Shown: positions 21,814 to 22,597 of the stretch, one piece after another
Layout: each line of letters begins with the position of its first letter
Position numbering within the stretch: the stretch's first letter is position 1
IMG/VR virus record: IMGVR_UViG_2529292726_000018
Coordinates: 1-29,089 of that record
Strand: one strand, 5' to 3'
Length of the DNA stretch: 29,089 nucleotides
DNA from: a virus
Lineage: Duplodnaviria; Heunggongvirae; Uroviricota; Caudoviricetes
Translations under genes and position numbers: made by a program
The notes under the pieces: generated by a model
Seen by the model: the letters and a program-made list of their open reading frames with translations, nothing else
Database searches by the model: none
Told to the model about the DNA's origin: nothing

Positions 21814-21919
21814 AAATATTTACAGATAAAATAAACCCGCCAAAGCTGGTTAAGTGTGGGTGCGTTGAGGATGCATAATACATCAGAGGTGGCGAGGGAT
21901 TTCTCCCTCGCCCGGTCTC

Positions 21920-22075
21920 TTACTCCTCAGGTTCGTAAGCTGTGAAGACAGCGACCTCCGTCTGCCCGGTTCGGATTCGTACCTCACAGAGGTCTTTCCT
22001 CGTTACCAGTGCCGTCACTATGACGGTTAAACAGATGACGATCAGGGCGATTAACATCGCCTTTTGCTGCTTCAT
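21920..22075 (-). CDS. hok: Hok/Gef-family type I toxin (HokD/RelF-like)
   Basis: 51 aa: MKQQKAMLIALIVICLTVIVTALVTRKDLCEVRIRTGQTEVAVFTAYEPEE, a single transmembrane helix plus a periplasmic tail with the conserved Cys, matching E. coli HokD/RelF as recalled. A perfect 9 bp 3' stem-loop (GGCGAGGGA/TCCCTCGCC, 21886-21907) follows. Confidence 0.9.
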   Translation of the reverse strand: MKQQKAMLIALIVICLTVIVTALVTRKDLCEVRIRTGQTEVAVFTAYEPEE

Positions 22076-22089
22076 AGCCTGCTTCTCCT

Positions 22090-22200
22090 TGACCTTTCGG
22101 TCCGTAAGAGGCTAATCTCTATGTGTCGCATAGATATGGCCTCAGATTAATGTTAAACGTCTTGCAGGACGCGTAATGTTAACTGGGGCTTTTCTCTATC
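22090..22200 (+). ncRNA. Putative Sok-like antisense RNA region (boundaries approximate)
   Basis: Plus-strand promoter-like TTGACC (22090-22095), 16 nt, GCTAAT, antisense to the hok leader and a short mok-like frame starting near 22131. Inferred from hok/sok architecture; the transcript itself is not demonstrable from sequence. Confidence 0.3.
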
Positions 22201-22597
22201 TACCTTTGGTGATCATGCCCGAGGCAGATAGCCTCAAGCACCCACAGCAATTCTAACTATCCAATACATCACTGCCAACACTTTAAACTCTTACCCTTTA
22301 AAACAAGAACAAAATTCAACCAATCAGCATTGGGCGTATACTCATATCCTAGAGAAAACAACTCTTTCTGTACTATTTATATCCATATGATTTATAAGCA
22401 TTTGCCACTTGCCATAGCCGCACAATGACAGTTTGCCATTTGATGTCAATAGATAAAAATGATCGTTTTCAATGAGTTACATACTTGCAAGGCGTTGCAC
22501 ATCAGGCCCGATTACGTCAGTATCAAAAGATTACAGATGGTGCATTACTGCCACCTCGCCTTAATGTTCCAGAACTCTCCAACTTGAGGAATTTTCA

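Follow-up and report, generated by a model that had tools for sequence, protein, structure and literature searches.

A hok/mok/sok type I toxin–antitoxin cassette, very likely intact, carried as accessory cargo by a lambdoid prophage of Escherichia coli

Is the hok gene encoded in the 29,089-nucleotide stretch of viral DNA analysed here (IMG/VR record IMGVR_UViG_2529292726_000018, hereafter the window) a toxin gene by itself, or is it the visible part of a complete hok/mok/sok system? In RefSeq the identical sequence carries the hokD coding sequence as its sole annotation, with Sok, mok and the RNA elements left unannotated, and the locus therefore looks like a lone toxin gene. The reading argued for below is a different one; it is very probable that the locus is an intact hok/mok/sok toxin–antitoxin system (type I) of the hokD/hokW lineage, about 440 bp in length (21834–22278), which is carried as accessory cargo by a lambdoid (Rac-like) E. 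coli prophage between its replication genes and its Q-type antiterminator, and which would follow the mechanism established for plasmid R1.

The window is a lambdoid prophage with the tail, head, terminase, and lysis genes on the minus strand. The cassette is flanked by the genes for a DUF1367 protein, YbcO, and the Q-type antiterminator on one side and by a divergent KilA-N gene on the other (Table 1); beyond the latter follow DUF977, DUF1627, a DnaC/IstB-like loader, YdaT-like and HTH proteins, and a RacR/Cro-type repressor pair. A neighbouring ORF of 28 aa has no match in Pfam, PHROGs, or NCBIfam. E. coli A17, in which hokD lies inside a Rac-type prophage at ttcA, has the same 461 nt around hok (100% identity); collinearity of the two sequences is limited to positions 14259–25023 of the window (98.8% identity), and the window thus stems from a mosaic relative.

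The assignment of the 51-aa ORF to the Hok/Gef toxin family, made in a preliminary description of this DNA, is borne out by profile searches. The ORF matches Pfam PF01848 (HOK_GEF) over the whole model with 82.9 bits (cut-off 22; E = 1.2e-23) as well as PHROG 251, “MokW-like host killing” (2.8e-33); its matches to the NCBIfam Hok models lie under the curated cut-offs (48.5 vs 73), which counts against the reading of an intact system, strong as the Pfam and PHROG matches are. At the protein level it is the same as HokD/RelF of E. coli K-12 in 51 of 51 residues, and the identical DNA in strain A17 bears the RefSeq label hokD.

The RNA upstream of the toxin gene belongs to the corresponding family. 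The preliminary description had proposed a covariance-model search with hok/sok RNA families, and this search returned the hok/sok family RF01794 at 22073–22243 on the minus strand, with 101 bits where the gathering score is 59 (E = 4.6e-22); the alignment spans model positions 1–157 of 157 and covers 171 nt upstream of and overlapping the hok start. RF01794 is the sole Rfam family above threshold across the whole window, and a permissive search of the region 21300–22700 added just chance-level matches (Phe_leader with 22 bits, snoRNA, miRNA) far under their cut-offs. The first base of the alignment, G22243, lies 7 nt behind the end of the −10 hexamer of a sigma-70-like promoter, which was found by a consensus scan and the TAGAAT of which is kept in prophage relatives. 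The 5′ end of the hok mRNA was deduced from this start of the Rfam model and its 3′ end from the fbi element; the transcript may extend on to the terminator-like hairpin downstream.

These boundaries bear on the extent of the locus. A leader of about 500 bp had been described upstream of hok, and the gap between hok and the KilA-N gene does amount to 523 bp. In other genomes and phages, however, homology to the cassette ends near 22279 or 22255 and is followed by divergence, and the segment 22285–22600 (316 bp) is found in no more than 118 genomes, in every case next to the KilA-N gene. The whole gap was therefore rejected as a leader: the hok leader proper comprises 168 nt (22243 down to 22076), preceded by some 35 bp of promoter, and the remaining ~316 bp travel with KilA-N. 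Conversely, the span of 21886–22250 first given for the locus was too short, as it leaves out the fbi element, the terminator-like hairpin, and the hok promoter.

Table 1. Features of the cassette and of its immediate surroundings in the window
Feature	Positions	Strand	Remarks
Q-type antiterminator gene (DUF1133/Phage_antitermQ)	20025–20687	−	
YbcO gene	20564–20854	−	
DUF1367 gene	20854–21453	−	
Terminator-like hairpin	21834–21851	−	7 pairs, one mismatch; then UAUUUUAU on the minus strand
Full-length hok mRNA (predicted)	21856–22243	−	~388 nt; both ends deduced
fbi element, CCUCAACGCACCC	21858–21870	−	partner of tac; present also in K-12 hokD
3′ stem-loop	21891–21912	−	perfect 9-bp stem, 4-nt loop; GGCGAGGGA-UUUC-UCCCUCGCC as read on the plus strand
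hok toxin gene	21920–22075	−	51-aa ORF; protein MKQQKAMLIALIVICLTVIVTALVTRKDLCEVRIRTGQTEVAVFTAYEPEE
mok-like leader ORF	22072–22131	−	19 codons, MRHIEISLLRTERSRRSRL; AUG at 22131
hok Shine-Dalgarno sequence, AAGGAG	22085–22090	−	read from the sequence; inside the mok ORF
Sok promoter (putative), TTGACC-18-TAATCT	22089–22118	+	hexamers at 22089–22094 and 22113–22118; homology to 933W sokW
dcb, GCCUC	22108–22112	−	pairs with mok Shine-Dalgarno GAGGC in the truncated fold
Sok antisense RNA (predicted)	22125–22193	+	~69 nt; homology to annotated sokW misc_RNA of 933W
mok Shine-Dalgarno region, CUGAGGC	22139–22145	−	GAGG at 22143–22140, 8 nt upstream of the mok AUG
ucb anti-Shine-Dalgarno box, GCCCCAG	22183–22189	−	fold partners: mok Shine-Dalgarno region, tac
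tac element, GGGUGCUUGAGGC	22231–22243	−	mRNA 5′ end; pairs with fbi
hok promoter, TTGGCA-17-TAGAAT	22250–22278	−	sigma-70-like; 10/12 in consensus scan
KilA-N gene	22598–23371	+	divergent; next after hok

The sequence elements and the predicted pairings of both conformations of a hok mRNA are present in the cassette. The full-length mRNA has a predicted folding energy of −157 kcal/mol (z = −8.3 vs 100 shuffles); in its minimum-energy fold, 11 of the 13 tac nucleotides are predicted to pair with fbi, and ucb masks the mok Shine-Dalgarno region. When the mRNA is truncated in silico at its 3′ end to position 21885, the minimum-energy fold switches to tac:ucb together with pairing of GAGGC with GCCUC, that is, of the mok Shine-Dalgarno sequence with dcb. 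Other truncation points yield a local 5′ hairpin between tac and the sequence directly downstream, the counterpart of the known metastable structure; the R1 hok mRNA has been described in all three forms, closed, open, and metastable (PMC9841398). Closure by tac and fbi is predicted in eight of eight relatives. Covariation between the two elements was sought in the aligned relatives and was not found, since tac is invariant among the nine aligned and fbi varies solely by changes that form G-U pairs.

At the 3′ end, the perfect stem-loop noticed earlier was located next to the toxin gene, and relatives retain it in differing sequence, that is, with compensatory changes. In the R1 model, the 3′ hairpin blocks 3′ exonucleases; the hairpin of the window is likewise predicted to be the stop for 3′ exonucleolytic processing and thereby the end of the truncated, translatable mRNA. 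The terminator-like hairpin further downstream was not listed by the consensus scan; its stem is perfect in the relatives L006 and Evi and in K-12. The mismatch that it contains in the window counts against the reading of the locus as an intact system, as does the −10 hexamer of the Sok promoter.

This promoter matches the plus-strand promoter-like element of the preliminary description; it is present, if weak by consensus. Since its −10 hexamer agrees with the consensus in just three of six positions, it was absent from the list produced by the consensus scan, and it was placed by homology to the annotated sokW instead; the element lies 7 nt upstream of the site that is the counterpart, by homology, of the start annotated for sokW in phage 933W. 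The Sok RNA predicted from this start folds into an open 5′ tail of 13 nt, a long terminator hairpin and then a U-tail, GGGGCUUUU, with −26.7 kcal/mol (z = −4.9). Its 5′ tail is complementary to the region of the start codon of mok, and the sequence of the tail varies among alleles. [quoted passage not shown]

The part in which the cassette departs from most of its relatives is mok. The leader ORF of the window ends where hok begins, its UGA stop overlapping the hok AUG as AUGA, and as the hok Shine-Dalgarno sequence lies within mok, ribosomes translating mok pass over it. The two start codons are 56 nt apart and thus out of frame. In 933W, Rac-SA53, Evi, L004, L006, and hokC, the equivalent AUG is found 57 nt upstream and in frame, giving a Mok of 69–70 aa, and in pE92, a phage-plasmid copy, the distance is 58 nt (+1 frame), which also holds for R1, as read from the nucleotide positions quoted in PMC9841398. 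Compared with its relatives, mok of the window has a 2-nt deletion and a 1-nt insertion. Its frameshift with respect to the 70-aa in-frame mok of the closest relatives could weaken translation of hok, which counts against the reading of an intact system. A lesion unique to the window was rejected; the exact 89-nt allele, from the mok Shine-Dalgarno sequence to the hok start, recurs in 778 E. coli records, the best 40 of which, as listed, have 100% identity over 100% of the query.

One might suppose, then, that the cassette is complete but silent, a “domesticated” or decaying copy in which the deletion and the insertion in mok prevent the formation of toxic Hok and which persists only by hitch-hiking with prophages. 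Its 19 codons of mok, set against the 70 in-frame codons of the relatives named above, would fit such a history, as would K-12 hokD, which indicates that the lineage tolerates loss of its regulators, and the chromosomal hokA, hokB, and hokC, for which a survey, with reference to Pedersen & Gerdes, reports negative tests of post-segregational killing and a suggestion of inactivity (bioRxiv 10.1101/2025.08.07.668861); this last point counts against the reading of an intact system as well. We nevertheless consider a silent copy quite unlikely. All other elements are undamaged and the switch between the folds is reproduced in silico, and the very allele suspected of being defective is the one shared by the 778 records. 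Moreover, mutagenesis of R1 showed that mok has to be translated just to the region of the hok start and that later stops, downstream of the hok start, are harmless (PMC9841398), and mok of the window ends on the hok AUG itself; the 19-codon mok is therefore expected to be still competent for coupling. Lastly, close relatives (cassettes with more than 87% mutual identity) use all three frame relations between mok and hok, with spacings of 56, 57, and 58 nt, so that the Mok peptide itself is arguably dispensable.

With the intact system as the preferred reading, a further step may be taken, which we put forward tentatively and hold to be plausible, if somewhat short of an even chance. The common allele would represent a mok cut down to its functional minimum, from which Hok is made by termination and reinitiation and not by read-through, and the occurrence of every frame relation would show that what matters is solely the translation of mok as far as the hok start. 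If so, the spacings of 56, 57, and 58 nt amount to a natural mutagenesis series. The 1-nt insertion in mok also improves the −35 hexamer of the Sok promoter, a gain that would hint at a co-adjustment of toxin translation and antitoxin supply. In any case, the natural variation of the mok frame could serve for a test of translational coupling in which no mutants need to be made.

Transcription, processing, turnover of Sok, toxicity in the host, and the biological role we infer by analogy, and the sequence of events would be as follows. From the minus-strand promoter, a stable hok transcript some 390 nt long would arise, in which pairing of the 5′ tac with the 3′ fbi produces a closed form with ucb lying over the mok Shine-Dalgarno sequence, so that no translation takes place. 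Slow trimming from the 3′ end to the stem-loop would remove fbi; tac would then pair with ucb, and the mok start region would become accessible to both ribosomes and Sok. As long as the short-lived Sok is made from the plus strand, it would bind by pairing to the mok start region, and the resulting duplex would be broken down. Once the supply of Sok ends, the 19 codons of mok would be translated across the hok Shine-Dalgarno sequence, termination at AUGA would lead to initiation of Hok, and Hok would enter the inner membrane, whereupon the cell would be killed or lysed.

What the prophage gains from this is most likely aid to lysis and to the release of phage upon induction, in the manner of hokW-sokW, and/or its own retention. 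[quoted passage not shown] In the window, hok points the same way as the genes for replication, Q, and lysis, and read-through from the early operon upon induction could thus interfere with the convergent Sok promoter; that it does disturb this promoter during induction is speculation on our part.

Alternatively, the cassette might serve mainly in abortive infection or phage exclusion. A lytic phage would shut down host transcription, Sok would no longer be made, and Hok would kill the cell ahead of completion of the phage cycle, with the lysogen population protected as a result. The R1 hok/sok locus on a high-copy plasmid is cited as having reduced the plating of T4 by 42% and its plaques by ~85% in size (cited in PMC8621323), and in another prophage the slot that separates the 28-aa ORF from the next module is occupied by the anti-phage peptidase IteS, and not by hok. 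Exclusion as the main role is unlikely all the same, as the survey found no enrichment of hok beside defence systems (bioRxiv 10.1101/2025.08.07.668861) and as the sole direct study of a prophage hok/sok locus, that of hokW-sokW, found a positive effect on release of the resident phage (PMC8621323).

On plasmids, the family is classically known for retention (bioRxiv 10.1101/2025.08.07.668861; PMC9841398), and the cassette could be mainly an addiction module which, by post-segregational killing, removes cells that excise or lose the prophage. In the same survey, where close to 80% of Enterobacteriaceae genomes were found to encode Hok, hok genes are about four-fold enriched in prophages (bioRxiv 10.1101/2025.08.07.668861). 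Matches to the present cassette were found in 4721 of 5426 complete E. coli genomes, at up to nine places per genome with a median of two, and most E. coli genomes thus contain at least two related cassettes; Sok from a co-resident copy might therefore cover for a lost one, although the differences between the Sok 5′ tails of the alleles would counter such cover. Retention as the chief function appears possible but doubtful.

The wide distribution also means that the cassette itself is nothing new. It is already known, very common, and annotated either as hokD or as hokW/mokW/sokW, the latter of which has been studied experimentally. Coverage of at least 80% is reached in 3902 E. coli genomes; further matches occur in 79 phage records, including 933W, VT2-Sakai, and Rac-type phages, and in 589 plasmids, many of which are non-mobilizable records of about 95–100 kb. 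Few accessory modules of E. coli prophages are thus as common as this cassette, its mechanism is textbook knowledge, and the present case matters little beyond correct annotation.

Comparison with known systems places the cassette within its lineage. The K-12 locus that shares its toxin, relB-relE-hokD of the Qin prophage, has a comparable neighbourhood, as it too lies in a lambdoid prophage upstream of the region of the Q-type antiterminator; homology to the window (95.7% DNA identity) is, however, limited to 21833–22089, which includes the 3′ hairpin, fbi, and the terminator hairpin. It stops 14 nt upstream of the hok ATG, at the very place where relE begins. K-12 hokD is without the hok promoter, tac, ucb, mok start, and Sok gene and has relBE in their place; the window, unlike K-12 Qin, contains the full regulatory set and no relBE. 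By tblastn, no RelB or RelE homologue was detected in the window (best E = 0.39), neither relB nor relE is annotated in the 98.8%-identical stretch of A17, and a relBE pair or rem concealed in the window was rejected on the same tblastn result. The preliminary description was thus correct in noting the absence of flanking relBE, an intact leader being found instead. As the homology stops at the start of relE, the relBE-hokD arrangement of K-12 is a truncated derivative, and to stand alone is the intact, normal state of the cassette.

More distant is hokC-mokC-sokC (gef) of the K-12 chromosome, which has a leader of the Rfam type and an annotated sokC ncRNA at the equivalent position. A hokC-type locus of strain STEC1012 matches the window with 75.6% DNA identity, and the stretch GACCG-AAGGTCAAGGAG ahead of hok is common to hokC and the window. 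MokC is a 69-aa in-frame extension, unlike mok of the window, and hokC resides in the core chromosome beside dnaJ or IS186, whereas hok of the window resides in a prophage.

With hok/mok/sok (parB) of plasmid R1, the cassette shares the logic of tac/fbi and ucb/dcb pairing, of coupling through mok, and of a 3′ processing hairpin; Sok, in the window a predicted RNA, is ~65–70 nt in length with an open 5′ tail, and in both loci mok has 19 codons upstream of the hok start. In R1, however, mok comprises 70 codons in the +1 frame and continues through hok, whereas mok of the window stops at the hok AUG. The R1 locus serves plasmid stability, the locus of the window is prophage cargo, and the two Hok proteins are divergent; HokW, for its part, is 44% identical to Hok of R1 (PMC8621323).

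The closest of the experimentally studied systems is hokW-mokW-sokW of the Stx2 phages 933W and Sp5 (VT2-Sakai), with DNA that is ~91% identical over 409 nt and with the same order and spacing of promoter, tac, ucb, mok start, Sok gene, hok, 3′ hairpin, and fbi. The toxin HokW is also 51 aa long, and its differences from Hok of the window are confined to near the C-terminus. This locus was shown experimentally to be a toxin–antitoxin system of type I with Sok transcribed from its own promoter; in Sp5, mutation of the sokW promoter released the toxicity of HokW, and growth came back in part when sokW was provided in trans (PMC8621323). The two cassettes differ in mok, which in hokW is a 70-aa in-frame extension of the toxin (57 nt) and in the window a 19-codon ORF out of frame (56 nt), in the Sok promoter (−35 hexamer TTGCCT and a 17-nt spacer in hokW, TTGACC and 18 nt in the window), and in the sequence of the Sok 5′ tail. 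They also differ in position, as hokW is located past the tail genes, close to where the Stx phage genome ends on the right, whereas the cassette of the window is located between the replication genes and the Q-like gene.

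Judged from its alignments, the window is a mosaic. E. coli A17 carries a Rac-type prophage (locus L001) with which the window is collinear solely over positions 14259-25023, where identity is 98.8%; no alignment to A17 was obtained for the structural-gene half (within 1-14258), and at the immunity end (25024-29089) just three short stretches of 75-442 bp align, at 92-95%. The last 484 bp of the window are 95% identical to the ydfA-ydfC region of the K-12 prophage Qin.

Within the collinear part, the hok/sok cassette occupies a slot between the side formed by the 28-aa ORF and the DUF1367 gene and the next module, and the contents of this slot vary by prophage (loci L005, L007 and L003): the cargo is hok/sok in the window, the anti-phage S8 peptidase IteS in NZ_CP042878, a DUF1971 gene in NZ_CP032261, and relBE-hokD together with rem in K-12 Qin. 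The slot has the appearance of a hot-spot for cargo or defence in lambdoid prophages.

The 28-aa ORF, which is convergent with hok, may be a genuine small membrane protein. Its length is constant in four further E. coli prophages, one of them with only 77% DNA identity and two devoid of hok; it has no match in Pfam, PHROGs or NCBIfam, and nothing is annotated at its position in any of the 25 records sampled (the region is present in 1060 genomes).

Features of the hok/sok region and its surroundings (window coordinates)
Feature	Position	Strand	Remark
28-aa hydrophobic ORF (MENNKSAHYAPFLSVILFVLCCAWALFL)	21727-21813	+	strong Shine-Dalgarno AAGGTGA
Variable slot	~21815-22285		
hok Tyr47 codon	21937-21935	-	within CUUACGAA (21932-21939)
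mok	22072-22131	-	leader ORF of hok
Sok single-stranded 5′ tail	22125-22140	+	sokW counterpart: L002 2778-2795

In hok itself, the motif CUUACGAA around the Tyr47 codon is similar to the anticodon loop of tRNA-Arg and is kept in all aligned relatives. The introduction to a preprint (bioRxiv 10.1101/2025.08.07.668861) describes A-to-I editing of hokB by TadA, which changes Tyr to Cys, and a similar phenomenon for hokC, hokD and hokE.

Across cassettes of more than 87% identity (the window and the homologous positions in L002, the record with sokW, and in loci L008, L009 and L012), the distance from the mok AUG to the hok AUG is 56, 57 or 58 nt, so that all three frame relations of mok and hok are represented; the frame-shifting 1-nt insertion in the window also alters the −35 hexamer of the Sok promoter, from TTGCCT to TTGACC. 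The Sok hairpin of the window is nearly identical to that of sokW, the homologue from 933W, and the single-stranded 5′ tail is unlike its sokW counterpart. In the R1 model it is the 5′ tail of Sok that initiates pairing with hok mRNA; as the tails diverge, hok/sok copies resident together may therefore not neutralise one another.
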